In this document: piece by piece, positions 1-44,293 of the stretch
Layout: the number at the start of each line of letters is the position of its first letter
How positions within the stretch are numbered: the stretch's first letter is position 1
Sequence record: MZ234049.1
Source: Escherichia phage vB_EcoP-UTI89UKE2
Reading direction: 5' to 3' (one strand)
DNA: 44,293 bases
The notes under the pieces: generated by a model
Told to the model about the DNA's origin: nothing
The model's database searches: none
What the model saw: the letters and a program-made list of their open reading frames with translations, nothing else
Program-made: the position numbers and the translations under genes

Positions 1-924
1 ATGACTACTGAAAACGTCCTCCTGTCTGTTCGTGAAGCTGCAACCGCTGAAATCAAGCAGCACTTAGACAATATCGGCACTTCTTACATCAAAGTTGGCG
101 CTTGTCTGAATGAATTACGCGGTGATTTCGAAGGTCAAAAAGACTTTTTAGCTTATGTAGAATCAGAGTTCGGCATCAAGAAAGCACAATGCTACAAGCT
201 GATGAGTGTAGCCCGTGTCTTTGAAGGGGATGAACGCTTTAAAGGTGTGGCTATGCGTGTAATGCTGGCGCTTGTTCCTTTCGCTGATGAAAATATAATC
301 ATGGAGAAGGCCGCAGAACTCGCCGCAGCTGGCAAGCTGGACACTAATGCCGTAAATGCCCTGATTGATCCTAAGAAAGAGACAAAGGCCGAGACGGTAC
401 AATCTAAGGCGGAGACAGTAAAACCGCAGGAGAACGCGACTGAGGCCGCAGAAACTATGCAAGGACATGCAACCTTTGAGGATTTCATCTTAGAGAAGGC
501 GAAAGAGGAGTTACAAAGTGTGCCGCCAGCAAGTGAGTCGGGTAACGACGAATCCGCACCGTGGGAAGATGAAAGCAAGCCGGAAGACACAAAGGCAGCG
601 CCGCTGGATAACACGGCTAATACTGAGAATGCCGCTATTGCTGGTCTGCTGGCACAAATTAAGGCACTGACTGAGCAATTACAGGCGGCTAATGACCGCA
701 TCGCCTCCTTAAGTAGCGCACGCGAAAGCAAGAAGGCAGCCGCACCTATGCTGCCGCAATTCAAATCTTCCTGCTTCTATGCTCGCTTAGGTTTAAGCGC
801 TGAGGAGGCAACGAAGAAAACAGCAGTTAACAAGGCACGCCGCGAACTGGTTAAGCTAGGCTACGGCGAAGGCCATGAAGCATGGCCCTTAATCTCTGAG
901 GCAGTAGAAGAATTAACTAAGTAA
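1..924 (+). CDS. hypothetical protein (307 aa) immediately upstream of the RNAP gene; structured N-terminal region followed by an Ala/Glu-rich low-complexity segment
   Basis: Long uninterrupted + strand ORF. ATG at position 1 is preceded across the window junction by AAGGTG (44282-44287), so the start is probably genuine in a circular record. No catalytic motifs recognised; same position as T7 gene 0.7 but no kinase motifs. Confidence 0.65.
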   Translation: MTTENVLLSVREAATAEIKQHLDNIGTSYIKVGACLNELRGDFEGQKDFLAYVESEFGIKKAQCYKLMSVARVFEGDERFKGVAMRVMLALVPFADENIIMEKAAELAAAGKLDTNAVNALIDPKKETKAETVQSKAETVKPQENATEAAETMQGHATFEDFILEKAKEELQSVPPASESGNDESAPWEDESKPEDTKAAPLDNTANTENAAIAGLLAQIKALTEQLQAANDRIASLSSARESKKAAAPMLPQFKSSCFYARLGLSAEEATKKTAVNKARRELVKLGYGEGHEAWPLISEAVEELTK

Positions 925-987
925 CCTTATCGGTGGCATCTTCTTAGGTGTCACCTATTAAGGTTTCTTTCACTAGGAGTAAACAAG

Positions 988-3615
988 ATGCAAGACCTAC
1001 ACGCTATTCAACTTCAACTTGAAGAAGAAATGTTTAACGGCGGTATCCGTCGCTTTGAAGCGGACCAACAACGCCAGATTGCATCCGGTAATGAATCAGA
1101 CACGGCATGGAATCGCCGCTTATTGTCCGAGTTAATCGCGCCAATGGCTGAAGGTATTCAGGCATACAAGGAAGAGTATGAAGGTAAAAGAGGCCGTGCA
1201 CCGCGTGCATTAGCTTTCATTAACTGCGTAGAAAACGAAGTGGCAGCATATATCACGATGAAAATCGTTATGGATATGCTGAACACGGATGTAACCTTGC
1301 AGGCTATAGCCATGAATGTAGCTGACCGCATTGAGGACCAAGTACGTTTTAGCAAGCTGGAAGGTCACGCCGCCAAATACTTTGAGAAAGTTAAGAAGTC
1401 ACTTAAGGCAAGTAAGACTAAATCATATCGCCATGCGCACAACGTAGCGGTCGTGGCTGAGAAGTCAGTAGCTGACCGTGACGCTGATTTCTCTCGCTGG
1501 GAGGCGTGGCCTAAAGATACCTTGCTACAAATTGGTATGACCTTGCTAGAAATACTGGAAAATAGTGTATTCTTCAATGGTCAGCCTGTCTTTCTTCGCA
1601 CCTTGCGCACTAATGGTGGCAAGCATGGCGTTTACTACTTACAGACTAGCGAACACGTGGGTGAATGGGTAACTGCATTTAAAGAGCACGTAGCTCAGCT
1701 GAGTCCAGCCTATGCGCCTTGCGTTATTCCTCCTCGTCCGTGGGTTTCTCCGTTTAATGGCGGCTTCCATACTGAGAAAGTAGCAAGCCGTATTCGTCTA
1801 GTAAAAGGCAATCGTGAGCACGTCCGCAAGCTGACCAAAAAGCAAATGCCAGCGGTTTACAAGGCTGTTAACGCTTTGCAGGCGACTAAGTGGCAGGTTA
1901 ATAAAGAGGTTTTGCAGGTAGTAGAGGACGTTATCCGTCTCGATCTTGGTTATGGTGTGCCTTCCTTTAAACCACTCATCGACCGTGAGAACAAGCCAGC
2001 TAATCCAGTGCCGTTAGAGTTCCAGCACCTGCGAGGCCGTGAATTGAAAGAGATGCTAACACCGGAGCAATGGCAGGCCTTCATCAACTGGAAGGGTGAA
2101 TGTACTAAGCTGTATACCGCTGAGACTAAGCGCGGCAGCAAGTCGGCGGCGACCGTCCGCATGGTAGGACAGGCCCGTAAATACAGCCAGTTTGACGCTA
2201 TTTATTTTGTATATGCACTGGATAGCCGTTCACGCGTTTATGCGCAATCTAGCACGCTCTCGCCGCAATCAAACGACTTAGGCAAGGCATTGCTCCGTTT
2301 TACCGAAGGGCAGCGTCTTGATAGCGCTGAGGCGCTTAAGTGGTTTTTGGTGAACGGGGCGAATAACTGGGGTTGGGATAAGAAAACTTTTGACGTGCGC
2401 ACCGCTAACGTGCTGGATAGTGAATTTCAAGACATGTGCCGCGACATTGCAGCGGATCCGCTGACCTTCACTCAATGGGTAAATGCCGACTCCCCTTACG
2501 GCTTCCTTGCATGGTGCTTTGAATATGCGCGTTATCTGGATGCACTGGATGAAGGCACGCAAGACCAATTCATGACGCACCTCCCAGTCCATCAAGATGG
2601 TAGTTGTTCTGGTATCCAGCACTACAGTGCTATGCTACGCGATGCAGTAGGTGCGAAAGCGGTAAACCTTAAGCCCTCTGACTCCCCTCAAGATATTTAT
2701 GGTGCCGTTGCGCAGGTAGTAATTCAGAAGAATTATGCATACATGAATGCAGAGGATGCGGAAACCTTCACTTCTGGCAGCGTGACTTTAACAGGTGCAG
2801 AACTTCGTAGCATGGCTAGTGCGTGGGATATGATAGGAATCACTCGCGGCCTGACCAAAAAGCCTGTAATGACACTACCTTATGGCAGCACACGTCTAAC
2901 CTGCCGTGAATCAGTGATTGATTATATCGTTGATTTGGAAGAAAAAGAGGCCCAACGGGCTATTGCGGAAGGGCGTACCGCCAATCCTGTACATCCTTTT
3001 GATAATGACCGCAAAGACAGCCTGACACCTAGCGCAGCTTATAACTATATGACAGCTTTAATCTGGCCTTCTATTTCGGAAGTGGTTAAAGCTCCTATAG
3101 TGGCAATGAAAATGATTCGTCAGCTTGCACGTTTCGCAGCTAAAAGAAACGAAGGCTTAGAATATCCCTTACCAACTGGCTTCATCTTGCAACAAAAGAT
3201 AATGGCTACCGATATGCTCCGCGTATCCACTTGCTTGATGGGTGAAATCAAGATGAGTCTCCAGATTGAAACAGATGTAGTTGATGAAACGGCAATGATG
3301 GGTGCGGCTGCTCCTAACTTCGTCCATGGTCACGATGCTAGCCACCTGATTCTGACTGTATGTGACCTAGTGGATAAAGGTATTACATCCATTGCAGTCA
3401 TCCATGATTCTTTCGGTACTCATGCAGGACGTACCGCAGACCTGCGGGATAGCTTAAGGGAAGAAATGGTTAAGATGTATCAAAACCATAATGCCCTGCA
3501 AAACCTGCTAGATGTGCACGAAGAGCGTTGGTTAGTAGACACCGGAATCCAAGTACCAGAGCAAGGAGAGTTTGACCTTAACGAAATCTTAGTTTCAGAC
3601 TATTGTTTCGCATAA
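988..3615 (+). CDS. single-subunit DNA-dependent RNA polymerase (T7/SP6 type; closest to SP6 RNAP by recollection)
   Basis: 875-aa ORF with RBS AGGAG at 972-976. Contains the family motifs [27 protein letters not shown] and [12 protein letters not shown], and a C-terminal DYCFA. Length and N-terminus [19 protein letters not shown] match SP6-type RNAP. Confidence 0.95.
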
Positions 3616-3622
3616 TATTAAT

Positions 3623-3652
3623 AGGCCATTCCTTAGGGAGTGGCCTTTTTCT
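3623..3652 (+). terminator. stem-loop plus T-run immediately after the RNAP gene
   Basis: GGCCATTCC-loop-GGAGTGGCC followed by TTTTTCTTT. Confidence 0.5.
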
Positions 3653-3676
3653 TTACCTACTACCTGTAACATTTCA

Positions 3677-3719
3677 TTAACATAAAAGTGTCTCACATGT
3701 GAGACTTATTTACCGGACA
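3677..3719 (+). promoter_or_regulatory. palindrome GTCTCACATGTGAGAC abutting a variant phage promoter (TATTTACCGGACACTATAGGATAG)
   Basis: 16-bp perfect palindrome at 3679-3694, directly followed by a sequence matching the phage promoter consensus except at 2-3 positions. Confidence 0.5.
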
Positions 3720-3769
3720 CTATAGGATAGCCGTCGGAGACGGGAAAGAAAGGGAAGATAAAGGATATA

Positions 3770-3830
3770 AAGGAAGTAATAGGTATTAAAGGTTATATAG
3801 GTTATCTAGGAATACCTATTACCTTCTTCC
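3770..3830. repeat. AT-rich block with four AGGT motifs at 9-bp spacing inside an inverted repeat (TAATAGGTATT / AATACCTATTA)
   Basis: AGG at about 3780, 3789, 3798 and 3807; flanking arms are reverse complements. Confidence 0.6.
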
Positions 3831-4072: not shown

Positions 4073-6061
4073 ATGGCTATTATTCAGAATGTACCGTGTC
4101 CTGCCTGTCAAAAGAATGGACATGATATTACTGGCAACCATCTTATGATATTTGAGGATGGCGCTGGTTACTGTAACCGTGGTCACTTCCATGATAACGG
4201 CAAGCCTTATTACCATAAGCCAGAGGGTGGCATCGAGATAACCGAATTACCTATTACTGGCAATATCAAATATACACCTTCTCAGTTTAAAGAGATGGAG
4301 AAGGAAGGGAAGATTAGCGACCCTAAGCTACGCGCCATCGCACTTGGTGGTATGCGTATGAAAGACCGTTGGGAGGTCATGAATGAGCAAGAAAGGGCAG
4401 AACAAGAAGCAGAGTGGAAACTTGATGTTGAATGGTTCCTCACGCTTAAGCGTAAGAATCTTGTTTCCCGACACATTCGCGGCGACATTTGCGCATTGTA
4501 CGATGTACGTGTCGGACACGATGAAGATGGTAGAGTCTCACGGCATTACTATCCACGCTTCGAGAAAGGTGAGCTAGTAGGCGCTAAGTGTCGCACATTA
4601 CCTAAAGACTTTAAGTTTGGTCATTTAGGTAAACTCTTTGGTATGCAAGATCTTTTCGGTATGAATACTTTGTCTCACGTGTTAGACAAGGGAAGACGAA
4701 AGGATTGCTTGCTTATTGTGGGCGGCGAACTGGATGCACTAGCAGCACAGCAAATGCTCCTTGATTCTGCCAAGGGTACTAAGTGGGAAGGCCAGCCTTA
4801 CCATGTATGGTCTGTCAATAAAGGTGAGTCTTGCCTTGAAGAGATAGTACAGAACCGTGAACACATCGCCCAATTTAAGAAGATTATATGGGGTTTTGAT
4901 GGAGATGAGGTAGGGCAGAAGCAGAATCAGCAAGCGGCTCGCCTGTTTCCTGGCAAATCCTATATCCTTGAATACCCTTCTGGTTGCAAAGATGCTAACA
5001 AGGCATTGATGGCTGGCAAGGCTAAAGAGTTTGTTGATGCTTGGTTTAATGCCAAGTCATCTGATGAAGTCTTTGGTAGCCAGATTAAATCTATCGCATC
5101 TCAAAGGGATAAGCTCAAGGCTGCACGTCCAGAGCAAGGGCTATCATGGCCTTGGCCTAAGCTGAACAAGGTAACGCTAGGTATTCGTAAGAACCAGCTT
5201 ATCATTGTAGGTGCAGGTTCTGGTGTAGGTAAGACTGAGTTCCTCCGCGAAGTGGTTAAACATCTCATTGAAGAACACGGTGAATCTGTAGGCATCATTT
5301 CTACAGAAGACCCAATGGTCAAGGTGTCCCGTGCTTTTATCGGCAAGTGGATTGATAAGCGTATTGAGTTACCGCCAACCAACGACCCGAAAGAAGACGG
5401 ATACCGTGAGGTGTTCGACTACACCGAGGAAGAAGCTAACGCTGCCATTGATTATGTAGCTGATACAGGAAAGCTATTTGTGGCTGACCTAGAAGGCGAT
5501 TATTCTATGGAGAAGGTAGAGCAAACTTGCCTAGAGTTTGAGGCTATGGGCATTTCTAATATCATCATTGATAACTTAACGGGGATTAAATTAGATGAGC
5601 GTGCTTTTGGTGGGAAGGTTGGTGCACTTGATGAATGCGTCAAACGAATTGGTACTATCAAAGACCGACATGCGGTTACGATTTTCCTTGTCTCTCACCT
5701 TACACGTCCTCCGGCAAACCGTACCCAACACGAAGAAGGTGGCGAAGTTATCCTTTCTGACTTCCGAGGCTCAGGCGCTATCGGATTCTGGGCATCTTAC
5801 GCCTTGGGGATTGAGCGTAATACAAGAGCTGAAACGCTTGATGAAAGGACTACCACGTACATCTCGTGTGTCAAAGACCGCGATCAAGGTATCTACACTG
5901 GAACCAAGGTCATGCTTAAAGGTGACATTCAGACCGGACGTTTGATGGAACCACAAGCCCGTACTAAGTCATTTGATACAGGTGAAGCAAGGCAGCAAGA
6001 GGTGCCTGATTTACCGGACACTATAGAAGAGACAAACTTTGAAGATGAACAGGAGTTTTAA
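4073..6061 (+). CDS. DNA primase/helicase (T7 gp4-like)
   Basis: N-terminal Cys4 zinc ribbon (CPACQKNGHD...YCNRGH), Walker A GAGSGVGKTEF, and a C-terminal acidic tail ending FEDEQEF as in T7 gp4. Confidence 0.93.
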   Translation: MAIIQNVPCPACQKNGHDITGNHLMIFEDGAGYCNRGHFHDNGKPYYHKPEGGIEITELPITGNIKYTPSQFKEMEKEGKISDPKLRAIALGGMRMKDRWEVMNEQERAEQEAEWKLDVEWFLTLKRKNLVSRHIRGDICALYDVRVGHDEDGRVSRHYYPRFEKGELVGAKCRTLPKDFKFGHLGKLFGMQDLFGMNTLSHVLDKGRRKDCLLIVGGELDALAAQQMLLDSAKGTKWEGQPYHVWSVNKGESCLEEIVQNREHIAQFKKIIWGFDGDEVGQKQNQQAARLFPGKSYILEYPSGCKDANKALMAGKAKEFVDAWFNAKSSDEVFGSQIKSIASQRDKLKAARPEQGLSWPWPKLNKVTLGIRKNQLIIVGAGSGVGKTEFLREVVKHLIEEHGESVGIISTEDPMVKVSRAFIGKWIDKRIELPPTNDPKEDGYREVFDYTEEEANAAIDYVADTGKLFVADLEGDYSMEKVEQTCLEFEAMGISNIIIDNLTGIKLDERAFGGKVGALDECVKRIGTIKDRHAVTIFLVSHLTRPPANRTQHEEGGEVILSDFRGSGAIGFWASYALGIERNTRAETLDERTTTYISCVKDRDQGIYTGTKVMLKGDIQTGRLMEPQARTKSFDTGEARQQEVPDLPDTIEETNFEDEQEF

Positions 6062-6222
6062 TGGAAATTATTAAACCAGTATTGAATATCGGTATTGAGA
6101 TCCTATTCATGCTTGTGATCGCAGATTATGCTGCACGATATGGATTCAAGAAAGCGGTGAAACTTATCGTTGCATCTGGTTTTCTTATGTCAATGTTCTT
6201 TATTGTAACACGCCTTATCTAG
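6061..6222 (+). CDS. small hydrophobic protein (53 aa)
   Basis: ATG overlaps the primase stop (TAATG); one predicted transmembrane helix; TAG at 6220-6222. Confidence 0.4.
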   Translation: MEIIKPVLNIGIEILFMLVIADYAARYGFKKAVKLIVASGFLMSMFFIVTRLI

Positions 6223-6233
6223 TGTATTTATCA

Positions 6234-6267
6234 GGGCTTGTCTCACATGTGAGACAGGCTCTTATTA
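6234..6267 (+). terminator. palindrome hairpin (core TGTCTCACATGTGAGACA, 6239-6256) with GC clamp and U-rich tail
   Basis: 18-bp perfect palindrome extended by GGCT/AGGC and followed by TCTTATT. Confidence 0.45.
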
Positions 6268-6294
6268 AGTACATTAAATAACTGGAGATTGATT

Positions 6295-6978
6295 ATGTAT
6301 AAATTAGTATTGAATGCAGGTGATTATGTTCGTAACATCAATGCAACCTCACGTAGATATCGTTGCCGTGGTACTGTGACTAATGTAAGTGAAAACAGCT
6401 ACTATGTAGAGTACAGTAATGGTATTAGACAGGCTTATCAAAAGGAATCAGCACATAACTACCTTGAGAAGATTGGAGAGGTAAGCAATCAATGTAAGTG
6501 CGTACACGATGAGATTTGCGATAAGTGTGCCCGCCAGATGCATAAAATGCTATTATACCCTCTTCGCTATGGTGCTGGCATTCAAACCTTATCAGAGGCA
6601 TATGGCAAAGGTAAGACTACACTTAATAAAGATCGCCGCAATGTAATCACTGGTAAGACTCAAAGTGAAATGATTAAGCAATGTGGCACTGCACTAGGTG
6701 TTACGCAGTTTAACACTCGTGCTCTTGGTAAATCCACAGGACAAGCTATGGTGAAGATTGGTGAAGCCATGATGCACCCAAATGTACCTGTGCGAATCAT
6801 GGATGTTGACCATGCAATCACAGAACACGGTACACCACGACGTGTAGCTAATAAGCATTTTGCCGACACTATAGAAGGTATTATCCGTAAGCAAGGGTTG
6901 AAAGGTCTTCACCTCTTGAATGGTGAAGAATTACTGTATCTCCCTATTGTTACTGAAGAAACCTACGTGAATATTTAA
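6295..6978 (+). CDS. hypothetical protein (227 aa) with Cys cluster CKCVHDEICDKC
   Basis: ORF with RBS GGAG at 6284-6287 and ATG at 6295. The track start at 6289 is a TTG extension. Confidence 0.7.
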   Translation: MYKLVLNAGDYVRNINATSRRYRCRGTVTNVSENSYYVEYSNGIRQAYQKESAHNYLEKIGEVSNQCKCVHDEICDKCARQMHKMLLYPLRYGAGIQTLSEAYGKGKTTLNKDRRNVITGKTQSEMIKQCGTALGVTQFNTRALGKSTGQAMVKIGEAMMHPNVPVRIMDVDHAITEHGTPRRVANKHFADTIEGIIRKQGLKGLHLLNGEELLYLPIVTEETYVNI

Positions 6979-6988
6979 GGAGTTAATC

Positions 6989-7075
6989 ATGACTAAAGTT
7001 CTAATTTATAAACAACGAGGTCTTAAGGCTTATGCTATTGTAGCACCAAATGGTGTTAAAAAAAGTAAGTTGTAA
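6989..7075 (+). CDS. small ORF (28 aa)
   Basis: AGGAG RBS then ATG at 6989; TAA at 7073-7075. Confidence 0.25.
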   Translation: MTKVLIYKQRGLKAYAIVAPNGVKKSKL

Positions 7076-7100
7076 GCCTCTTGCAATAAAAGGTGCAGGT

Positions 7101-7205
7101 ATGTCTGCTAACTTACAATTGCAACTTTTTGGCAATTTCACAGAAGCGCAATTCCGCAATAAACATGAAGTTATTGGTTCTTTTATGGTGAAACATGCAG
7201 AATAA
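7101..7205 (+). CDS. small ORF (34 aa)
   Basis: AGGTG RBS at 7091-7095, ATG at 7101, TAA at 7203-7205. Confidence 0.25.
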   Translation: MSANLQLQLFGNFTEAQFRNKHEVIGSFMVKHAE

Positions 7206-7404
7206 ACACAGCCTTAAGATGTTTGATGGTCACGAAGACCTGCAAGCACACATCACTAACCAAGCCTTCCTGTTTGCACAGTTAACTATGGCTGAAGCAA
7301 AGAAGAATAGTCTGACACGTGAGCAGGTTATCAAGGAGGCAACTTGGGAGCCACACCAAGGCAAATACATGGGCCAGAGATTAACTGTAACACGCAGTCG
7401 ATAA
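7195..7404 (+). CDS. hypothetical protein (69 aa; alternative start 7219)
   Basis: ORF ending just before a palindrome hairpin; start ambiguous. Confidence 0.45.
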   Translation: MQNKHSLKMFDGHEDLQAHITNQAFLFAQLTMAEAKKNSLTREQVIKEATWEPHQGKYMGQRLTVTRSR

Positions 7405-7410
7405 GTAAAG

Positions 7411-7440
7411 GGTTGTCTCACACATGAGACAGCCTTTCAT
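7411..7440 (+). terminator. palindrome hairpin variant TGTCTCA-CACA-TGAGACA with GC clamp and U-rich tail
   Basis: Arms TGTCTCA/TGAGACA at 7414-7431, flanked by GG/CC and followed by TTTCAT. Confidence 0.4.
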
Positions 7441-7461
7441 CATATTGATTGGAGGTGCATT

Positions 7462-7569
7462 ATGTCACGTGATTATGATTCTGATTGGGACTACTATGAC
7501 TCAATGAATCCAAAACCTGAACATTCAGATGATTATTATTGGGTGGAGGAAATGTATGAAGACTGTTGA
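7462..7569 (+). CDS. small acidic, aromatic-rich protein (35 aa)
   Basis: RBS GGAGG at 7451-7455, ATG at 7462; ends 14 nt inside the DNA polymerase gene. Confidence 0.35.
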   Translation: MSRDYDSDWDYYDSMNPKPEHSDDYYWVEEMYEDC

Positions 7570-10102: not shown

Positions 10103-10218
10103 TGGACAGGTTTGATGTTGTTTGCCTATTCTCTATCTTCTTTCTTATATTCCTTATGCTTGCTTGCTATGGAAGTATGCGATTAGATATACCTGATGAA
10201 GAGGAGGGTTACGATTGA
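10102..10218 (+). CDS. small hydrophobic peptide (38 aa) ending EEEGYD
   Basis: ATG overlaps the DNAP stop (TGATG); one hydrophobic segment. Confidence 0.3.
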   Translation: MDRFDVVCLFSIFFLIFLMLACYGSMRLDIPDEEEGYD

Positions 10219-10316
10219 TGCAAACTGCTTTTATCATTCTTGGGATCATATTATTTATGGTAGTATTCTGGGCTTTCTCTGGCATTGACCCAGATTGTGA
10301 TGGTAACTACGATTGA
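10218..10316 (+). CDS. small hydrophobic peptide (32 aa) ending DCDGNYD
   Basis: ATG overlaps the preceding stop; same architecture as the previous peptide. Confidence 0.3.
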   Translation: MQTAFIILGIILFMVVFWAFSGIDPDCDGNYD

Positions 10317-10384
10317 GTTATACTCAAGGTCACTTACGAGTGGCCTTTATGAATAACTTATTCCTACTTATTTTGTCTAACATG

Positions 10385-10406
10385 ATTTACTGGACACTAT
10401 AGAAGG
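10385..10406 (+). promoter_or_regulatory. phage RNAP promoter (ATTTACTGGACACTATAGAAGG)
   Basis: Exact match to the consensus recurring in this genome; SP6-type core CACTATAGAAG. Confidence 0.8.
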
Positions 10407-10460
10407 AAAGCCTAGGTAATCTAGGTTTATAAGGTAGTATAGGTAATTAAGTAAATATAG
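10405..10460. repeat. phased (T)AGGT repeat array downstream of a promoter
   Basis: TAGGT/AAGGT/TAGGA motifs at about 9-bp spacing (CCTAGGTAATCTAGGTTTATAAGGTAGTATAGGTAA...). Confidence 0.6.
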
Positions 10461-10471
10461 GAGATATAAAT

Positions 10472-10849: not shown

Positions 10850-10855
10850 GGAGTT

Positions 10856-11155: not shown

Positions 11156-11176
11156 TTACTGGACACTATAGAACAA
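11153..11176 (+). promoter_or_regulatory. phage RNAP promoter (TAATTACTGGACACTATAGAACAA)
   Basis: Consensus core; overlaps the stop of the upstream ORF. Confidence 0.75.
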
Positions 11177-11226
11177 TAGGTCGGCTTAGTTCGGCCTATG
11201 ATTGTAAAGTGTTGAACCGCCTTTTG

Positions 11227-11257: not shown

Positions 11258-11319
11258 CTTTCTAGTGAGTACATGCTTGTGCTCAGTACAAAGCTAACTG
11301 ACAATAGGAGACTAAATAA

Positions 11320-12354: not shown

Positions 12355-12355
12355 A

Positions 12356-36266: not shown

Positions 36267-36944
36267 GTGTTAGGTATTACAGGACAACGAAGTGTAAGTC
36301 ATCAAGCTAAGGTTGCCACGGAAGTGGCTCCTATCGTTGATATCTCAGATGTGTCTGACGTTAACTCTTATCTAAACCAAAAGTACCTATCAGGTAAACA
36401 GGAAGGATATACTGTTCTGACTAAGAAAGGTTCACGTTATTCATTGTATGCTGCAACAGGTTCTAAGCCAGAAGATAAGTGGTTGCCTTTAGAGCAAGCA
36501 ACCCTACCTGATTCGAGTGCATTAGAGCTAATTGACACCATCGATGTTGAAGTTGCAAGTGCAAGCGACACAGTAGAGGTTAATGTAACCAAAGAGAGGA
36601 CTGTGTGCATCCAGACGCCTATGAAGGACTTAGCAGGTGATACAGTTTACCGGCAAGAATTGACTGCCAACATTAACCTTACCATTAATGAAAACGGAAG
36701 CCCAAGCGATACGGTTAAATTAAACATATCAATTCCTAATTTGCCAGGAACATCTAGTGGGTCTTACTATACAGTTGACAATGTGCTGTGTACTTCTTTT
36801 GGAGACGACAGTCCTGTTATTGCCAATATAGATGTCGATAAGGCTACCACTAACTTGATTGCTGTTACACTTCGTAAAGAGACGGCAACAGATATTAGGC
36901 TGTCTCTTGTAATTAGGTGGTCAATGCCAGTGGAGATTGTATAA
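36267..36944 (+). CDS. hypothetical protein (about 225 aa), paralog 3 with C-terminal extension; GTG start inferred
   Basis: Motif KYLSGKQEGYTVL ... YAATGSKPEDKWLPL; start codon uncertain (TTG 36237 or GTG 36267). Confidence 0.55.
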   Translation: MLGITGQRSVSHQAKVATEVAPIVDISDVSDVNSYLNQKYLSGKQEGYTVLTKKGSRYSLYAATGSKPEDKWLPLEQATLPDSSALELIDTIDVEVASASDTVEVNVTKERTVCIQTPMKDLAGDTVYRQELTANINLTINENGSPSDTVKLNISIPNLPGTSSGSYYTVDNVLCTSFGDDSPVIANIDVDKATTNLIAVTLRKETATDIRLSLVIRWSMPVEIV

Positions 36945-37288
36945 TGCTTAACAAATACTTCAAGCGTAAAGAGTTCGCTTGCCGTTGTGGGTGCGGTACA
37001 TCCACTGTTGATGCTGAATTACTGCAGGTAGTCACAGATGTGCGTGAGCACTTTGGTACTCCTGTTGTTATCACTTCTGGTCATCGCTGTGCTAAGCACA
37101 ATGCTAATGTAGGTGGAGCTAAGAACTCTATGCATCTTACTGGTAAGGCTGCTGACATTAAGGTACGAGGCATCTTACCTTCTGATGTACATAAGTACCT
37201 TACTGATAAGTACCAAGGCAAGTATGGTATTGGTAAATATACCTCCTTTACTCATATTGATGTACGTGACGGGTGTGCACGATGGTAG
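36944..37288 (+). CDS. endolysin, peptidase M15 family (zinc peptidase)
   Basis: FACRCGCG ... SGHRCAKHNANVGGAKNSMHLTGKAADI ... HIDVRDG; ATG overlaps the upstream stop. Confidence 0.8.
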   Translation: MLNKYFKRKEFACRCGCGTSTVDAELLQVVTDVREHFGTPVVITSGHRCAKHNANVGGAKNSMHLTGKAADIKVRGILPSDVHKYLTDKYQGKYGIGKYTSFTHIDVRDGCARW

Positions 37289-37396
37289 GTTGTGTTGCAT
37301 GGTGTGAACGCATGGTTGCTAAGGCTTCAGAGGAAGGCAACTATGAAGATTGGCAGAACTACTCAACTTTATTAGCTCAATGGAAAGGGAGATGCA

Positions 37397-37546
37397 ATGA
37401 AAAAGCTGTTCAAATCTAAGAAGGTTGTAGGTGCACTAGTTGCATTGGCAATTGCTCTTGTTTCTGTAGGTCTTGGTGTAGACCTTGGCTCTGGCACGGA
37501 ATCCTCTGTGACAGATGTGGTATGCCAAGTAATCACCTGTGAATAA
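37397..37546 (+). CDS. small membrane protein (49 aa), possible lysis-associated protein
   Basis: N-terminal MKKLFKSKK followed by a hydrophobic helix; lies between endolysin and spanins. Confidence 0.35.
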   Translation: MKKLFKSKKVVGALVALAIALVSVGLGVDLGSGTESSVTDVVCQVITCE

Positions 37547-37760
37547 GGTGCTTGAGGTGGTGGCAGGTCTTATTGGCCTGCTGCTTGCCGCTAAGAAGAA
37601 GAAGGAAGAGAAGGAGGTACAAAGTGAGGCGAATCATGCTAGCGACAATCCTGCTGATTGGTTCGCTGATCACTTCAGGGTGTCAGACGGCGTTACCAGA
37701 GAATCCAAAGGTGAAACCTCTGAAGCCGACGCTTACGGCAGTCTACGAGGTGGACGATAG
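37539..37760 (+). CDS. putative i-spanin (Rz-like; start codon ambiguous, GTG candidates at 37539-37560)
   Basis: N-terminal TM segment VLEVVAGLIGLLLAA followed by a charged periplasmic region; overlaps the o-spanin gene. Confidence 0.45.
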   Translation: MNKVLEVVAGLIGLLLAAKKKKEEKEVQSEANHASDNPADWFADHFRVSDGVTRESKGETSEADAYGSLRGGR

Positions 37761-37833
37761 AGTCTGCTTCAGTAAACCTGACGCTACAAAATTGGGTCTG
37801 TACATTCTCTCGCTAGAACGCGGATATAATTAA
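37636..37833 (+). CDS. putative o-spanin lipoprotein (Rz1-like)
   Basis: Signal plus lipobox-like LITSGC, then a Pro-rich mature part with a second Cys; gene starts inside the i-spanin gene in another frame and extends past it. Confidence 0.55.
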   Translation: MLATILLIGSLITSGCQTALPENPKVKPLKPTLTAVYEVDDRVCFSKPDATKLGLYILSLERGYN

Positions 37834-38366: not shown

Positions 38367-40802
38367 ATGATTCAAAGACTAGGTTCTTCATTAGTTAAAT
38401 TCAAGAGTAAAATAGCAGGTGCAATCTGGCGTAACTTGGATGACAAGCTCACCGAGGTTGTATCGCTTAAAGATTTTGGAGCCAAAGGTGATGGTAAGAC
38501 AAACGACCAAGATGCAGTAAATGCAGCGATGGCTTCAGGTAAGAGAATTGACGGTGCTGGTGCTACTTACAAAGTATCATCTTTACCTGATATGGAGCGA
38601 TTCTATAACACCCGCTTCGTATGGGAACGTTTAGCAGGTCAACCTCTTTACTATGTGAGTAAAGGTTTTATCAATGGTGAACTCTATAAAATCACGGACA
38701 ACCCTTATTACAATGCTTGGCCTCAAGACAAGGCGTTTGTATATGAGAATGTGATATATGCACCCTACATGGGTAGCGACCGTCATGGTGTTAGTCGTCT
38801 GCATGTATCATGGGTTAAGTCTGGTGACGATGGTCAAACATGGTCTACTCCAGAGTGGCTAACTGATCTGCATCCAGATTACCCTACAGTGAACTATCAT
38901 TGTATGAGTATGGGTGTATGTCGCAACCGTCTGTTTGCCATGATTGAAACACGTACTTTAGCCAAGAACGCACTAACCAATTGTGCATTGTGGGATCGCC
39001 CTATGTCTCGTAGTCTGCATCTTACTGGTGGTATCACTAAGGCTGCAAATCAGCGTTATGCAACAATCCATGTACCTGATCACGGATTATTCGTGGGCGA
39101 TTTTGTTAGCTTCTCTAATTCTGCGGTAACAGGTGTAACTGGTGATATGAAAGTTGCAACAGTTATAGATAAGGACAACTTCACGGTTCTTACAGCCAAT
39201 CAGCAGACCTCTGATTTGAACAATGCTGGAAAGAATTGGCACATGGGTACTTCCTTCCATAAGTCTCCATGGCGTAAGACAGATCTTGGCCTGATACCTC
39301 GTGTTACTGAAGTTCATAGCTTTGCTACTATTGATAACAATGGCTTTGTTATGGGTTATCACCAAGGCGACGTAGCTCCACGCGAAGTTGGTCTTTTCTA
39401 CTTCCCTGATGCTTTTAACAATCCATCTAATTATGTTCGTCGTCAGATACCATCTGAGTACGAACCGGGTGCTGCAGAGCCATGCATCAAGTACTATGAC
39501 GGTGTATTATACCTTATCACTCGTGGTACTCGTGGCGACCGACTAGGAAGCTCTTTGCATCGTAGTAGAGATATAGGTCAGACTTGGGAGTCACTGAGAT
39601 TTCCACATAATGTTCATCATACTACCTTACCTTTTGCTAAAGTAGGAGATGACCTTATTATGTTTGGTTCAGAACGTGCAGAAAATGAATGGGAAGCAGG
39701 TGCACCAGATGATCGTTACAAGGCATCTTATCCTCGTACCTTCTATGCACGATTGAATGTAAACAATTGGAATGCAGATGATATTGAATGGGTTAACATC
39801 ACAGACCAAATCTATCAAGGTGACATTGTGAACTCTAGTGTAGGTGTAGGTTCTGTTGTAGTTAAAGACAGCTACATTTACTATATCTTTGGTGGTGAAA
39901 ACCATTTCAACCCAATGACTTATGGTGACAACAAAGATAAAGACCCATTTAAAGGTAATGGACACCCTACTGATATATACTGCTATAAGATGCAGATTGC
40001 AAATGACAGTCGTGTATCTCGTAAGTTTACATATGGTGCAACTCCTGGTCAGGCTATACCTACTTTCATGGGTACTGATGGTATTCGCACTATTCCTGCT
40101 CCACTTCACTTATCAGGAGAGGTAGTTGCCGCAGATATGACTGTCGAACACCTTACCTTGAAGGCAAGTACAAGTGCTAATATTCGCTCAGAGATGCTGA
40201 TGGAGGGTGAATATGGGTTCATTGGTAAGACTATACCAACGGATAACCCAACCGCCCAACGTGTTATCATCTCTGGTGGAGAGGGTACAGCAGCAGATAC
40301 CGGTGCGCAAATTACCTTACACGGAGCAGGTTCTAGCACTTCTAGACGCGCAGTATATAATGCCAATGAGCACTTGTTCCAAAGTGGAGCTATCATGCCA
40401 TACAATGATAACGTGTATCCTGCTGGTGGCCCTCGTAATAGATTCACTACTATCCATCTTACAAGTGACCCTATTATTACGTCGGATGCCACTCATAAGT
40501 ATGGATCACAAGGTATTGATGAGAGTGTACTAAAGGCATGGGGTAAGGTTAGCTTCAAGCAGTACAAGTTGATTGGTGAGATGTCTCGTGGTGTGCACCA
40601 CACTCACTTTGGTGTATTGGCACAAGACATTGTAGCTGCTTTTGCATCCGAAGGGTTAGATGCAATCGACTTCGGCATTGTCTCCTTCGAAGAAGGTCAG
40701 TTTGGTGTTAGATATAGTGAAATCTTAATCTTGGAGGCTGCTTATACTCGCTATCGTTTAGACAAGTTAGAGGAGATGTATGCCACTAATAAAATCAGTT
40801 AA
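38367..40802 (+). CDS. tailspike endo-N-acetylneuraminidase (endosialidase) with C-terminal intramolecular chaperone domain
   Basis: 811 aa from ATG 38367 (RBS AAGGAGG). Sequence recognised from memory as K1-phage endosialidase, including the C-terminal block ending YATNKIS. Confidence 0.88.
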   Translation: MIQRLGSSLVKFKSKIAGAIWRNLDDKLTEVVSLKDFGAKGDGKTNDQDAVNAAMASGKRIDGAGATYKVSSLPDMERFYNTRFVWERLAGQPLYYVSKGFINGELYKITDNPYYNAWPQDKAFVYENVIYAPYMGSDRHGVSRLHVSWVKSGDDGQTWSTPEWLTDLHPDYPTVNYHCMSMGVCRNRLFAMIETRTLAKNALTNCALWDRPMSRSLHLTGGITKAANQRYATIHVPDHGLFVGDFVSFSNSAVTGVTGDMKVATVIDKDNFTVLTANQQTSDLNNAGKNWHMGTSFHKSPWRKTDLGLIPRVTEVHSFATIDNNGFVMGYHQGDVAPREVGLFYFPDAFNNPSNYVRRQIPSEYEPGAAEPCIKYYDGVLYLITRGTRGDRLGSSLHRSRDIGQTWESLRFPHNVHHTTLPFAKVGDDLIMFGSERAENEWEAGAPDDRYKASYPRTFYARLNVNNWNADDIEWVNITDQIYQGDIVNSSVGVGSVVVKDSYIYYIFGGENHFNPMTYGDNKDKDPFKGNGHPTDIYCYKMQIANDSRVSRKFTYGATPGQAIPTFMGTDGIRTIPAPLHLSGEVVAADMTVEHLTLKASTSANIRSEMLMEGEYGFIGKTIPTDNPTAQRVIISGGEGTAADTGAQITLHGAGSSTSRRAVYNANEHLFQSGAIMPYNDNVYPAGGPRNRFTTIHLTSDPIITSDATHKYGSQGIDESVLKAWGKVSFKQYKLIGEMSRGVHHTHFGVLAQDIVAAFASEGLDAIDFGIVSFEEGQFGVRYSEILILEAAYTRYRLDKLEEMYATNKIS

Positions 40803-41139: not shown

Positions 41140-41460
41140 GTGAGGTGTCTCGCCCTCGCCCTCGCCGGATTTCCCCCATATGGGGCCGCGCTGCGGTTGG
41201 CTTGGGAATTGGGCTGGGCTGGTCCGTCTTCGACGGGTGGCCTAGGGCTTGCCGAGGTCTGCTCTTAGTGGCTGCACAAGGAGAACGCCTAGGAAGCGCT
41301 AGGGCACGCCTTAGTATTGGACAAGGTGATTGCCTTAGTGCAATCGCTTAGGGCTTACACAGGGCGTTTTAGGGCCATTCCTGAGCGTTTGACAGGGTGT
41401 GAGGGCGTGGGCTATCTGTTCGTTTCGTTCACTACGCTTGCGCTCCGTTCACTCGCTCAC
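41140..41460. other. GC-rich non-coding segment, probable genome terminus / direct terminal repeat region
   Basis: No credible ORF; CGCCCT x3 and the palindrome CCCCATATGGGG (41174-41185), which resembles the CCCCCATAGGGGG element near the T7 left end; flanked by heptamer repeat arrays as the T7 terminal repeat is flanked by CCTAAAG arrays. Confidence 0.5.
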
Positions 41461-41465: not shown

Positions 41466-41595
41466 CCTTAGGTTATTACTTGATGGATAGCTTAGGTTAA
41501 CCTTAGTGGAATGCCTTAGTTAAAGACTTAGTGCTTATCTTAGTAACAGCTTAGTAGTGTACCTTAGTTGGTCTTAGTGAATAGCCTTAGTGATT
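41466..41595. repeat. dense array of about 11 C/T-TTAG-G/T-T/G heptamer repeats at 10-13 bp spacing
   Basis: CCTTAGGTT, GCTTAGGTT, CCTTAGTGG, GCCTTAGTT, ACTTAGTGC, TCTTAGTAA, GCTTAGTAG, CCTTAGTTG, TCTTAGTGA, CCTTAGTGA, with more copies out to 41915. Confidence 0.75.
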
Positions 41596-41788: not shown

Positions 41789-41817
41789 TTGACAAGGCCG
41801 TCTCAATGTAATACTAT
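41789..41817 (+). promoter_or_regulatory. candidate host sigma70 early promoter (-35 TTGACA, 17-bp spacer, -10 TACTAT)
   Basis: Hexamer match and spacing; upstream of the first early gene. Confidence 0.4.
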
Positions 41818-41960: not shown

Positions 41961-42188
41961 ATGAAAGTACAAGTAAAAGCGTACAACATGCCAGTTGATG
42001 AGATTCAGCACTTCCTCGATAAAGGTTATGACTTATGTAAGATGCGCACACCAGATAACTATGATTATTCGCCTAAGTATCTGCACTATATTGATCTTAA
42101 GATGGGTAATAAATTAGTTATAACTGGTACAGCATATAACCGCATTATCAAAACTCTTAAAGAGGGTGCTAATCATGACATTAAATAA
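41961..42188 (+). CDS. early protein (75 aa)
   Basis: RBS GAGGGA then ATG at 41961. Confidence 0.55.
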   Translation: MKVQVKAYNMPVDEIQHFLDKGYDLCKMRTPDNYDYSPKYLHYIDLKMGNKLVITGTAYNRIIKTLKEGANHDIK

Positions 42189-42354
42189 CCGTGAACTGTC
42201 CGTTCTCTTCACCCTGTTATGTTACATGATTCGTAACAACGAATTACTTACAGATGATGAGTTAGCCTTGTATCACCGCTTTCTTAACGAAGGTTGGACC
42301 GATACGGTTAATCAATACCGTAACATGATAGATGAGTTGAGGGAGGGTAAATAA
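42175..42354 (+). CDS. early protein (59 aa)
   Basis: RBS AGAGGG then ATG at 42175; overlaps the upstream gene by 14 nt. Confidence 0.5.
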   Translation: MTLNNRELSVLFTLLCYMIRNNELLTDDELALYHRFLNEGWTDTVNQYRNMIDELREGK

Positions 42355-42578
42355 TGTATCAACATGAGGTATTCTTTGAATCAGCTAGCGAAGCTATTCG
42401 CTTCCACGATGATATGCTACAAACTGGCGTAGGTGTTGATGTACATCACTTCCTACTAGATTACGACACTGAATATCACCGAGTTACCTTAGTATCTGAG
42501 TATGACAACCAAGTCATTACTGAGTATCTAGGTAGTGAAGATTATGATTACGATGAAGTAATCACGACAAATCTCTAA
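42354..42578 (+). CDS. early acidic protein (74 aa)
   Basis: TAATG overlap start; RBS GAGGGAGGG; strongly acidic C-terminal half. Confidence 0.55.
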   Translation: MYQHEVFFESASEAIRFHDDMLQTGVGVDVHHFLLDYDTEYHRVTLVSEYDNQVITEYLGSEDYDYDEVITTNL

Positions 42579-42586
42579 ATTAACTA

Positions 42587-42615
42587 TTGACAACCACGGC
42601 ATACAAGGTTACATT
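42587..42615 (+). promoter_or_regulatory. candidate sigma70 promoter (-35 TTGACA, 17-bp spacer, -10 TACATT)
   Basis: TTGACAAC start resembles the T7 A2/A3 -35 regions. Confidence 0.35.
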
Positions 42616-42644
42616 AAGCATCAAGACGGCGACGTCTTTAAACA

Positions 42645-42665
42645 TCACGCTCTTTAACAATAGAG
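42645..42665 (+). promoter_or_regulatory. early leader module 2 (CGCTCTTTAACAATAGAG)
   Basis: Repeat copy inside a roughly 280-bp non-coding stretch. Confidence 0.4.
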
Positions 42666-42802
42666 ATTAGGCCGGCAGTATCGGTGTGAGGGACAAGGAG
42701 GCTTTCCCACAATTAAACTGGTGGCAAAAGGATTGCCCAGCTTTATAGCCCAGTTATGGATAGCAATAGCGTAAGGATGGCAGCACACCCGCGAGTCTAA
42801 TC

Positions 42803-42850
42803 TCTAGCTCTTTAACAATCTGGCTAGTGCCTTGGTAGGCTAACTACTTA
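42803..42850 (+). promoter_or_regulatory. early leader module 3 (AGCTCTTTAACAATCTGG)
   Basis: About 40 nt upstream of the 70-aa gene. Confidence 0.45.
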
Positions 42851-42862
42851 CTAAGGTGAACT

Positions 42863-43075
42863 ATGAACTACTGCGACATCGCTCACGAATTACGCATGGA
42901 ACGTGAGAAACAAGAAAGGCGGATTATCAAGAAGATGGCTGTACTGCTTGCACACTATAAGGCAGACAAACAGCCAACACATGATGAGTTCGTGGACTTC
43001 TGTAACATGTATCTTAATGTGAGTAAGGCCACTGGTTACAGATGGCTTAAAGCACTGAATGATGGAGAATTGTAG
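42863..43075 (+). CDS. early protein (70 aa), possible helix-turn-helix
   Basis: RBS AAGGTG; C-terminal VSKATGYRWLKAL resembles an HTH recognition helix. Confidence 0.55.
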   Translation: MNYCDIAHELRMEREKQERRIIKKMAVLLAHYKADKQPTHDEFVDFCNMYLNVSKATGYRWLKALNDGEL

Positions 43076-43078
43076 CAA

Positions 43079-43165
43079 TAAGCCAGCTTAATAGCTGGCC
43101 TATCAAGGCACTAACCTAGCCCTTTAACAATCTGGTTTGTGTCTTGATAGGCTTACTAACAGAAA
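43079..43165 (+). promoter_or_regulatory. early leader module 4: hairpin GCCAGCTTAATAGCTGGC, then CCTATCAAGGCAC ... CCCTTTAACAATCTGG ... GTGTCTTGATAGG
   Basis: Long imperfect stem enclosing the conserved core; structure typical of RNase III processing sites. Confidence 0.5.
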
Positions 43166-43176
43166 GGTAAATTATC

Positions 43177-43344
43177 ATGGAAACTTTAATCGTTACCACT
43201 ACAATCAACGGCGTAAGTATCAGCATAACTAAGTATTCTTCCGAAGAGTATGAAGTGAATCACGGAATAGCTGCTATGGTGTATGACAACTTGGCAGATG
43301 CCGTGGAGCATTGGATACAGTCATGTAAGGCTGCAATTAAGTAG
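43177..43344 (+). CDS. early protein (55 aa)
   Basis: RBS AGAAAGG then ATG at 43177; TAG at 43342-43344. Under 60 aa, so absent from the ORF track. Confidence 0.45.
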   Translation: METLIVTTTINGVSISITKYSSEEYEVNHGIAAMVYDNLADAVEHWIQSCKAAIK

Positions 43345-43460
43345 GAAAGATAAGGCTGGCACTAGCCAGCCTATCAAGGCACAAGCCACGCTCTTTAACA
43401 ATATGGGTAGTCGCTTCTTAGTCTGGATAGGTTAAACCTAGGAGATTCTCTTGAGTCTCC
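43345..43460 (+). promoter_or_regulatory. early leader module 5: hairpin GGCTGGCACTAGCCAGCC, CGCTCTTTAACAATATGG, and hairpin GGAGATTCTCTTGAGTCTCC before ocr
   Basis: Same arrangement as module 4; a perfect TATAAT sits at 43461-43466. Confidence 0.5.
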
Positions 43461-43498
43461 TATAATGTAACCTAACTAACTAAATGAGGATTAATAAC

Positions 43499-43852
43499 AT
43501 GGCTATGTCTAATATGACTTACTCTCAGGTTTACAACACCGCTCATGCTGCATTAGTTGAACGTGTCTGGGATGATGCTATTGATTGTATCGATAACGCA
43601 CATGATGCAATCCATGAGGTGGCGGATAGTGCTGTACCAATCTATTATGCTGACATCTTCTCGGTGATGGCCAGTGAAGGAATCGACCACTTCTTCGAGG
43701 ATTCTGGCTTAATGCCAGACACTAAGGATGTGACTGTCGTACTACAAGCCCGTATTTATGAACAACTCACCATTGATTTATGGGAACGTGTTCAAGATAT
43801 GATTGATGAGTACATCGATTCCGCTGAGGATTCAGAAGAAGAGGAAGAATAA
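43499..43852 (+). CDS. ocr: Ocr-like DNA-mimic anti-restriction protein (T7 gene 0.3 homologue)
   Basis: MAMSNMTY ... [13 protein letters not shown] ... [11 protein letters not shown] ... [14 protein letters not shown] and an acidic C-terminus closely follow T7 Ocr as recalled. RBS GAGGA; the track start at 43484 is an extension. Confidence 0.85.
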
Positions 43853-43854
43853 GG

Positions 43855-43968
43855 ATGGAAAAGCAATATAACTTTATCTTTTCAGACGGTGTAACCCTGA
43901 AGTGTTCCCTACGATTCGCTCAGATTCGTGAGGAAGTGCTAGGTACTACATACAAACTATTTAGCTGA
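43855..43968 (+). CDS. small early ORF (37 aa)
   Basis: ATG 3 nt after the ocr stop; TGA at 43966-43968. Confidence 0.35.
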   Translation: MEKQYNFIFSDGVTLKCSLRFAQIREEVLGTTYKLFS

Positions 43969-43983
43969 CACTATAAGAGAAGG
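43962..43983 (+). promoter_or_regulatory. degenerate phage promoter-like sequence (TAGCTGACACTATAAGAGAAGG)
   Basis: Core CACTATA retained but downstream AGAGAAG instead of GAAG; may be the weak first phage promoter. Confidence 0.3.
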
Positions 43984-44044
43984 CTTAACAAGGCGTTGCT
44001 ACGGTAGCGCCTGATTAAACTTTCACTTACTAGGAGTTGAGATT

Positions 44045-44230
44045 ATGAAAACCTTGATTGGATGCTTCTTGTTGGCTTCTCTTGCTCTGGCATTTACCGC
44101 TAAAGCTGGTTATGACGCTTATAAAGTAGAACAAGCCCAGCAAGACTGGGCCAAAAAGTTCAACTTGTGTAGCAAGAGCAACACCTACGAGTATTGCAAC
44201 AAAACACTAAGACACTTATGGAAAGAGTAA
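44045..44230 (+). CDS. small secreted protein (61 aa) with N-terminal signal peptide
   Basis: RBS AGGAG; MKTLIGCFLLASLALAFTAKA is a signal-peptide-like N-terminus with AKA cleavage motif; mature part has two Cys. Confidence 0.55.
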   Translation: MKTLIGCFLLASLALAFTAKAGYDAYKVEQAQQDWAKKFNLCSKSNTYEYCNKTLRHLWKE

Positions 44231-44264
44231 CTAGCCTATAGCCTACCTGAGTGGGCTATGTGAT

Positions 44265-44287
44265 ATTTACTTACACTATATAAGGTG
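44265..44287 (+). promoter_or_regulatory. degenerate promoter-like sequence (ATTTACTTACACTATATAAGGTG) at the window end, upstream of the ORF starting at position 1
   Basis: Partial match to the phage promoter consensus; its 3' end provides the AAGGTG RBS for the position-1 ATG if the record is circular. Confidence 0.3.
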
Positions 44288-44293
44288 ATTACT

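Follow-up and report, generated by a model that had tools for sequence, protein, structure and literature searches.

Phage T7, in the account attributed to Dunn and Studier in 1983, reportedly carries a short exact direct terminal repeat with flanking short repeat arrays; its early host promoters are said to lie just inside the left end, and its genes all on one strand. K1E and K1-5 belong to the genus Vectrevirus and are SP6-like phages of the 'T7 supergroup'. The K1E record (NC_007637.1 / AM084415) begins at the physical left end and holds both copies of an exact 288-bp terminal repeat. The record of vB_EcoP_KAW1A4500 (MK373773.1) was likewise deposited end to end with both repeat copies, the repeat being given as 266 bp (PMC6563267), while that of AAPEc6 is 261 bp long (PMC5543629). 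The SP6-like phage UAB_Phi78 has a 179-bp repeat, and its fixed ends were proven by Bal31 digestion and run-off sequencing (PMC4837284).

Loose et al. reported in 2021 the Escherichia phages vB_EcoP-UTI89UKE2, with a length of 44,293 bp (Table 1), and vB_EcoP-UTI89UKE3 (PMC8614997). Both are Vectrevirus phages (Autographiviridae, Molineuxvirinae). The stretch analysed here, referred to as the window, is the whole UTI89UKE2 record MZ234049.1 at its full 44,293 nucleotides. It is separated from UTI89UKE3 (MZ234050.1, itself classed as Vectrevirus) by one indel, an A7/A8 run at 7058-7065, and one SNP, G/A at 39469; the opening points are identical and nothing of substance differs. K1E is colinear with the rotated window throughout at 76-98% nucleotide identity per aligned segment, or about 83-98% once one divergent early-region segment is set aside. 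The two share gene order, endosialidase tailspike, promoter type, and the sequence and boundaries of the terminal repeat. They differ in accessory content, namely in early genes, a 145-nt module at 42662-42806 and a gene at 36267-36944, and K1E has a homing endonuclease in the terminase gene, which the window does not. In layout, a rotation of 3,146 bp sets the window apart from the K1E record, which has two 288-bp repeat copies where the window has one of 267 bp. Considered jointly with a collapsed terminal repeat and fixed virion ends, the window very probably represents the entire unique sequence of a K1E-like Vectrevirus, a strictly lytic, K1-capsule-specific E. coli podophage. Its genes are arranged as follows.

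1..924, + strand: K1E gene 6 homolog, phrog_4571 (unknown function; E=3.6e-130), aligning from K1E 3156
988..3615, + strand: single-subunit DNA-directed RNA polymerase, K1E gene 7 (PF00940, E=3.9e-89; PF14700, E=2.7e-31; MZ234050.1 annotation)
4073..17161, + strand: DNA metabolism block, including a nucleotide kinase (MZ234050.1 annotation, PHROG matches, K1E colinearity)
4073..6061, + strand: primase/helicase, in the DNA metabolism block
7556..10102, + strand: DNA polymerase, same block
13134..14162, + strand: exonuclease, same block
14147..14560, + strand: endonuclease VII, same block
16214..17161, + strand: ligase, same block
18160..33133, + strand: virion block with portal, scaffold, tail tubular proteins A and B and three internal virion proteins (relatives' annotations)
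20707..21909, + strand: major capsid protein, in the virion block
32171..33133, + strand: tail fibre/adaptor (PF03906)
33321..35518, + strand: terminase, small subunit 33321-33620 and large subunit 33620-35518 (NF033889 termin_lrg_T7)
36944..37288, + strand: endolysin (lysis genes 36944..37833 supported by phrog_894/phrog_8971)
37636..37833, + strand: Rz-like spanin (same support)
38367..40802, + strand: endosialidase tailspike, K1 capsule-specific (PF12217, E=1.5e-221; PF12219, PF12195, PF12218, PF13884)
41961..44230, + strand: early genes (PHROG match in 8 of 8 ORFs tested, 7 strong and 1 weak, the latter at 43177-43344, E=5.6e-4)
43499..43852, + strand: ocr-like anti-restriction protein (phrog_2568, E=2.7e-49)

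PF00959 was also found at 25850-28798 in the virion block, and the early-gene start is placed at 41961 where the PHROG alignment begins, at residue 15 of the 41919 ORF. A preliminary description of the window had stated that the full T7-group gene order is present once. The single copy holds, and the order is more exactly that of SP6/K1E (Molineuxvirinae), marked by a ligase after the DNA polymerase and by lysis genes and tailspike after the terminase; a T7 gp3.5-type lysozyme is absent from the annotation of MZ234050.1. The likeness to T7 lies in the terminal repeat, the flanking arrays, the left-end early promoters, the one-strand genes and the T7-type terminase. The differences are no detectable DNA similarity, the SP6/K1E variant of the gene order, a repeat unit (CTTAGT) that is not T7's, and a terminal repeat of 267 bp as compared with 160 bp in T7.

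The description of all supported genes as lying on the + strand is borne out. A PHROG family match was obtained for 29 of 30 small or hypothetical + strand ORFs and, on the minus strand, for none of three Prokka calls and none of the seven longest ORFs; GC skew is positive in all 2-kb bins. ARAGORN found no tRNA or tmRNA in the window. SP6-type phage promoters are predicted to be present: the ACACTATA core occurs 14 times, always on the + strand, vs. 1.9 expected, and 13 of the 14 copies stand in promoter-like context. Eleven consensus sites ATTTACTGGACACTATAGAAG, again all on the + strand, lie downstream of the first phage-RNAP promoter-like site. The putative transcription signals of the early region are listed below.

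41789..41817, + strand: host sigma-70-type early promoter, TTGACA-17-TACTAT (10/12 matches; predicted function)
42587..42615, + strand: second host sigma-70-type early promoter (10/12 matches; predicted function)
43959..43979, + strand: first phage-RNAP promoter-like site, SP6 type, ATTTAGCTGACACTATAAGAG (sequence motif)
44265..44293, + strand: degenerate promoter-like motif (44265-44280) and Shine-Dalgarno sequence AGGTGAT (44283-44289) for the ATG at position 1 (sequence read directly)

Transcription would run from left to right. Host RNA polymerase would start at the sigma-70-type promoters at 41789 and 42587 and read without interruption over the file break at 44293/1, from the early genes into gene 6 and the RNAP gene, after which the phage RNAP would use about 12 promoters of the form ATTTACTGGACACTATAGAAG. 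The motif at 44265-44280 was considered as a proven promoter; it lacks 1 nt of the promoter consensus, its +1 base is T, and it is treated as degenerate.

The file break itself was examined by joining the last 700 and the first 700 bases and searching the product against a phage collection. In 35 phage records at least 80% of the join is covered in one place. The match of PQ476009.1 is unbroken over positions 1-1400 of it, at 99.9%; that of OR424384.1 is likewise unbroken, at 96.1% (record positions 1484-2885). K1E is colinear across the junction, its coordinates 1, 3156 (the start of gene 6) and 45251 corresponding to window 41148, 1 and 41414, respectively. The 44293/1 junction is real contiguous phage DNA, and the proposal that early genes 41961-44230 continue into the position-1 gene and then the RNAP gene is confirmed, as is that of a whole phage genome, in terms of unique content, opened inside the early region. 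The window terminates in ...TATAAGGTGATTACT, where AGGTGAT, complementary over 7 nt to the 16S 3' end, lies 4 nt ahead of the position-1 ATG; this ATG is thus served by a ribosome-binding site at the window end, as had been suggested, and joining the ends, the check then recommended, bears this out. In the joined ends the position-1 reading frame reaches back no further than 44264; apart from a 45-aa minus-strand ORF, they are crossed by no further ORF of substantial size. The position-1 gene has no Pfam match, no significant PDB sequence match (best E=0.82) and only a sub-threshold, coiled-coil-like SMC match. Because MZ234050.1 and MZ234012.1 from the same study likewise begin at the gene-6 ATG, the start there is a depositor convention. 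Since 44293/1 is internal DNA, reads spanning it are uninformative, and the informative sites are 41148 and 41414.

These two positions delimit the segment that corresponds to the termini of the relatives.

41148..41414, no strand: collapsed single copy of the direct terminal repeat, 267 bp, with a predicted left end at 41148 and right end at 41414
41502..41591, + strand: CTTAGT array, 8 repeats at a spacing of about 12 nt, immediately inward of the left end, within the CTTAGT-rich zone 40900-41950

The records of K1E, mutPK1A2, KAW1A4500, fTuEco01 and Mt1B1_P10 (n=5) all begin at window 41148/41149, and those of K1E, mutPK1A2, KAW1A4500 and Mt1B1_P10 finish at 41414. Exact or annotated direct terminal repeats of 267-288 bp are found in four of the five: besides K1E, an annotated 286-bp repeat in mutPK1A2, which starts one base later (CTCGCC...), an annotated 267-bp repeat in Mt1B1_P10, and in KAW1A4500 an exact 267-bp repeat that is identical to window 41148-41414 at 259/267 positions (97%), ungapped and with the same flanks. 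Both ends of K1E and of KAW1A4500 align to window 41148-41414, which has the right-end flank upstream and the left-end flank downstream. The CTTAGT zone surrounds the terminal repeat, and 19 of the 30 + strand CTTAGT copies fall within 1,050 nt, as compared to 0.28 expected. No terminal self-overlap of 8-3000 nt was detected in the window, so the repeat is not duplicated in the file; nor does the window hold any repeat of at least 30 nt besides promoter, hairpin and processing-site motifs. No PHROG family was matched by the terminal-repeat ORF at 41136-41351, which corresponds to K1E gene 48, and it was left out of the supported genes.

On this comparison the window reads as a collapsed concatemer junction, that is, a right-end flank, one repeat copy and then a left-end flank. 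The placement of the ends is based on homology, and many related records are also rotated, so that database starts alone are no proof of physical ends. The ends might be fixed, yet at positions or with a repeat length other than 41148-41414, if the relatives' records had been trimmed by analogy to K1E. Repeat length does vary, being 261, 266/267, 286 and 288 bp among relatives and 179 bp in UAB_Phi78, but the differences among relatives come from an internal 22-nt indel with the ends unshifted, and KAW1A4500 has the 267-bp form of the window. Furthermore, the repeat is bounded by TCTCGCCCTCGCC... and ...GTGGGCTA in both K1E and KAW1A4500, the window has these two sequences without change, and the annotated repeat of mutPK1A2 has the same boundaries (ends compared by direct reading). 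Ends situated elsewhere are considered very unlikely.

The claim that the genome is circularly permuted is true of the file coordinates only. It would apply to the DNA itself if the virion population were permuted and terminally redundant owing to headful packaging of the P22 or T4 kind, in which case no part would be missing from the record and it could be opened equally well anywhere. The large terminase argues against this, as it scores 558.8 bits against the NF033889 termin_lrg_T7 equivalog (cutoff 150), not a headful type, and belongs to the T7 type, in which packaging leaves fixed ends and short direct repeats. In assembly the sequence behaves as circular, but a collapsed terminal repeat also gives a circular contig, and the circular assembly cannot tell headful packaging from fixed ends. 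That many related records start at different points and read straight through 41148-41414 is in line with permutation; against it stand the five common starts and four common ends, the repeats at identical homologous positions in close relatives, and the fixed ends of SP6-like UAB_Phi78 (PMC4837284). Headful packaging thus seems highly improbable. From the relatives' fixed termini and repeats, the T7-type terminase and the proven ends of UAB_Phi78, the virion DNA is most likely linear and non-permuted, with a length of 44,560 bp (44,293 + 267), and window position 1 would be virion coordinate 3,147. The record is accordingly complete, as had been stated, for the unique sequence, and lacks the second 267-bp repeat copy.

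According to PMC8614997, Illumina reads were assembled with SPAdes; the paper was not found to mention terminal repeats or any determination of the ends. The short-read assembly would have collapsed the two 267-bp direct terminal repeat copies into one, giving a circle-like contig that the depositors would then have opened at the start codon of the gene that precedes the RNA polymerase gene. The virion molecule would run from window 41148 through 44293/1 to 41414, with 41148-41414 at either end. If T7 is a guide, replication would produce head-to-tail concatemers in which neighbouring genomes share a single repeat copy, and the T7-type terminase would cut them at fixed sites, with duplication of the repeat during packaging.

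It was also considered whether the window is only part of some larger replicon, such as a prophage or a plasmid-borne element, or a genome missing unique sequence. Every K1E segment maps once and colinearly onto the rotated window, the unaligned gaps being only short divergent or indel segments (e.g., K1E 38557-39302, which carries the homing-endonuclease gene). In 35 independent genomes the two window ends adjoin directly, a length of 44,560 bp fits the relatives at 44.2-45.3 kb, with only the second repeat copy missing, and megablast of the window halves against 5,426 complete E. coli genomes returned no match for either half. The possibility is effectively refuted, and the view of the record as a whole genome and not an excerpt stands. 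Integrase, repressor and excisionase genes were found neither in the annotations of three relatives nor in PHROG, Pfam and NCBIfam scans. With the megablast result, this agrees with the earlier statements that the window contains no integrase, repressor or host flank and that the phage is strictly lytic.

One early-region segment distinguishes the window from the K1E reference. The 145-nt non-coding module at 42662-42806 lies between two early-region CTCTTTAACAAT boxes, is closed by an 11-bp stem, is not in K1E and is at least 98.7% identical in eight Vectrevirus records. The CTCTTTAACAAT box resembles a processing site for RNase III. The boxes at 43120 and 43391 fold convincingly, and are the only two to do so; those at 41891, 42650 and 42808 show no significant fold. 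Rfam gave no matches at gathering thresholds over the whole window and, in E-value mode over 41100-44293, only chance miRNA matches far below threshold. It is doubtful that the module is cut out of the early transcript to form a separate small phage RNA with its own function.

In general, the topology of this genome is already known and holds nothing new; its presentation in the record is an ordinary database artefact. It matters for bookkeeping only, to users of the record for genome-end, packaging or synteny analyses, for whom the file is rotated by 3,146 bp with respect to the predicted virion DNA and is without the second copy of the 267-bp terminal repeat. When an SP6/T7-like phage assembles as 'circular', this reflects terminal repeats collapsed into one and not permutation. 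The lytic, integrase-free status of the phage fits the phage-therapy context of its isolation.

The last 700 and first 700 bases of the window were joined and searched against the phage collection. Thirty-five phage records cover at least 80% of the joined query in one place, and it is matched as a single piece by Phi100-A (PQ476009.1) at 99.9% and by vB-Eco-KMB14 at 96.1% (record positions 1484-2885). Since the joined ends match contiguously in phage records, 44293/1 is ordinary internal phage DNA, in agreement with the continuity claimed in a preliminary description. Across the join, the reading frame of the first gene opens only at 44264; its first ATG, at position 1, is also where K1E gene 6 and its homologs have their annotated start. 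Direct reading shows AGGTGAT at 44283-44289, a 7-nt complement to the 16S rRNA 3' end with a 4-nt spacer before this ATG, so the start does take its ribosome binding site from the window end, as had been proposed. No other substantial ORF crosses the junction in the joined ends. A variant phage-promoter-like motif (44265-44280) abuts the window end; it looks degenerate because of a 1-nt deletion relative to the consensus and a T at +1. Failure of reads to span 44293/1 had been offered as a refutation of the complete, permuted genome; spanning reads cannot discriminate, because the junction is internal DNA. The sites informative on genome ends are 41148 and 41414.

The record of K1E (NC_007637.1), which has an exact direct repeat at its ends, follows the rotated window colinearly: its base 1 corresponds to window 41148, the start of gene 6 (3156) to window 1, and its last base to window 41414. 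Five records start at window 41148/41149 (K1E, KAW1A4500, fTuEco01, mutPK1A2 and Mt1B1_P10), and four end at 41414 (K1E, mutPK1A2, KAW1A4500 and Mt1B1_P10).

Terminal repeats, exact or annotated, in related phage records
K1E: 288 bp
KAW1A4500: 267 bp
mutPK1A2: 286 bp
Mt1B1_P10: 267 bp

Published lengths are 266 bp for KAW1A4500 (PMC6563267) and 261 bp for AAPEc6 (PMC5543629). In the alignment, window 41100-41450 begins with the right-end flank of the relatives, ...AACCAAAGTCAAAATTTTGATATAGGCGTGTGTGAGGTG, followed by one repeat copy, TCTCGCCCTCGCCCTCGCC...GTGGGCTA, and then by their left-end flank, TCTGTTCGTTTCG... By sequence comparison, this flank-repeat-flank layout is that of a concatemer junction, which amounts to a terminal repeat collapsed into one copy. 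The 267 bp at 41148-41414 are identical to the KAW1A4500 repeat at 259/267 positions, ungapped. A 71-aa ORF with a GTG start (41136-41351), the counterpart of K1E gene 48, begins 12 nt before the repeat and stops within it; no PHROG family matches it, and it is probably not a gene.

The relatives' ends thus lie at fixed homologous positions (41148/41149 and 41414), which does not bear out the description of the genome as circularly permuted. Bal31 digestion and run-off sequencing established that the SP6-like phage UAB_Phi78 has fixed ends and an exact repeat of 179 bp, and the authors explicitly set such ends apart from those of P22-like phages, which they call "circularly permuted" (PMC4837284). 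The large terminase of the window matches the NCBIfam equivalog of the T7-type terminase with 558.8 bits against a cutoff of 150. The motif CTTAGT has 19 of its 30 plus-strand copies within 40900-41950 (0.28 expected), eight of them tightly arrayed at intervals of about 12 nt (41502-41591), just within the inferred left end. The T7 terminal repeat is flanked by short repeat arrays, which the CTTAGT array recalls; this concentration may, like the T7 SRL/SRR arrays, act as a signal for packaging or at the concatemer junction. Following the T7 paradigm, concatemers would form and terminase cutting would duplicate the repeat.

Megablast of both window ends against 50,697 phage records identified Escherichia phage vB_EcoP-UTI89UKE3 (MZ234050.1; 44,294 bp; Autographiviridae, Molineuxvirinae, Vectrevirus), 100% identical over the queried parts. 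Base-by-base comparison gives two differences in total:
7058-7065, intergenic: A7/A8 homopolymer
39469: G versus A (Gly368 to Asp, beta-propeller of the endosialidase tailspike)

The paper describing UTI89UKE3 and its sibling UTI89UKE2 (PMC8614997) reports SPAdes assembly from Illumina reads and annotation with Prokka; terms for terminal repeats or for any determination of the ends were looked for in its text and gave no hit. During short-read assembly the two copies of the repeat would have merged into one, and the contig would have been opened by its depositors at the start codon of the gene preceding RNAP, an ATG at which UTI89UKE3 and 101101UKE1 of the same study both begin. Rotation is a common deposition artefact: many further records of Vectrevirus are rotated as well, their sequence running through the repeat without a break. 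The "complete" genome has all of its unique sequence, with one of the two repeat copies missing.

The claim that all supported genes lie on the plus strand held up: PHROG families match 29 of 30 small or hypothetical plus-strand ORFs, all 14 ACACTATA cores are on this strand (1.9 expected, both strands together), and GC skew is positive in 22/22 bins of 2 kb. On the minus strand, neither the three Prokka calls nor the seven longest ORFs have a PHROG family. These three calls (3595-3696, 3916-4011 and 42654-42788) are tiny CDS of 31-44 aa in the near-identical GenBank record; they are missing from the K1E and mutPK1A2 annotations and are likely spurious. The window has neither terminal overlap nor long internal repeats, so the gene set is present once, as had been stated. 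Its order follows the T7 plan in the SP6/K1E variant, with ligase after DNA polymerase, and endolysin, spanin and endosialidase tailspike after terminase. The reported lack of integrase, repressor and host flank was confirmed: no integrase, repressor or excisionase appears in the MZ234050.1, mutPK1A2 and K1E annotations or the window family scans, and megablast of either window half against 5,426 complete E. coli genomes gave no match.

The early region contains the following features:
41789 and 42587: predicted sigma-70-type promoters with perfect TTGACA boxes
41961-44230, plus strand: early genes, including an ocr-like anti-restriction gene (43499-43852)
42662-42806: 145-nt non-coding module between two CTCTTTAACAAT boxes

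From family knowledge, the host would transcribe the early genes, gene 6 (1-924) and the RNAP gene (988-3615) from these promoters, and the phage RNAP would then use about 12 SP6-type promoters; 11/14 ACACTATA cores fit the SP6-type promoter ATTTACTGGACACTATAGAAG. Another variant phage-promoter-like motif (43959-43979), with an A at +1, resembles the SP6 consensus more closely. The conserved box CTCTTTAACAAT occurs five times between early genes (41891, 42650, 42808, 43120 and 43391; 0.43 expected). At 43080-43160 (z = -6.1) and 43352-43432 (z = -2.6), it lies in the internal loop of a long hairpin preceded by a short GC hairpin, a layout resembling the sites at which RNase III processes early T7 mRNA. 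The module, which an 11-bp stem closes (z = -1.95), has at least 98.7% identity across eight Vectrevirus records and is absent in the K1E reference; it has no Rfam match, and the 44-aa minus-strand Prokka CDS in its region has no PHROG family. A perfect or near-perfect palindrome, TGTCTCACATGTGAGACA, has five intergenic copies (3691, 3872, 6241, 7416 and 28817), two directly upstream of phage promoters; these may be terminator, pause or RNA-stability hairpins.

In general, the window is a known phage with a known genome architecture. It is whole, unidirectional and lytic, as interpreted earlier, but "circularly permuted" and fully complete do not stand as biology: circular permutation belongs to the deposited file rather than to the virus. 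Homology lends good support to the inferred placement of the physical ends of UTI89UKE2, which puts window position 1 at virion coordinate 3,147. Most likely, the virion carries linear, non-permuted DNA of 44,560 bp that begins at window 41148, continues through 44293 into 1, finishes at 41414 and has 41148-41414 at both ends.
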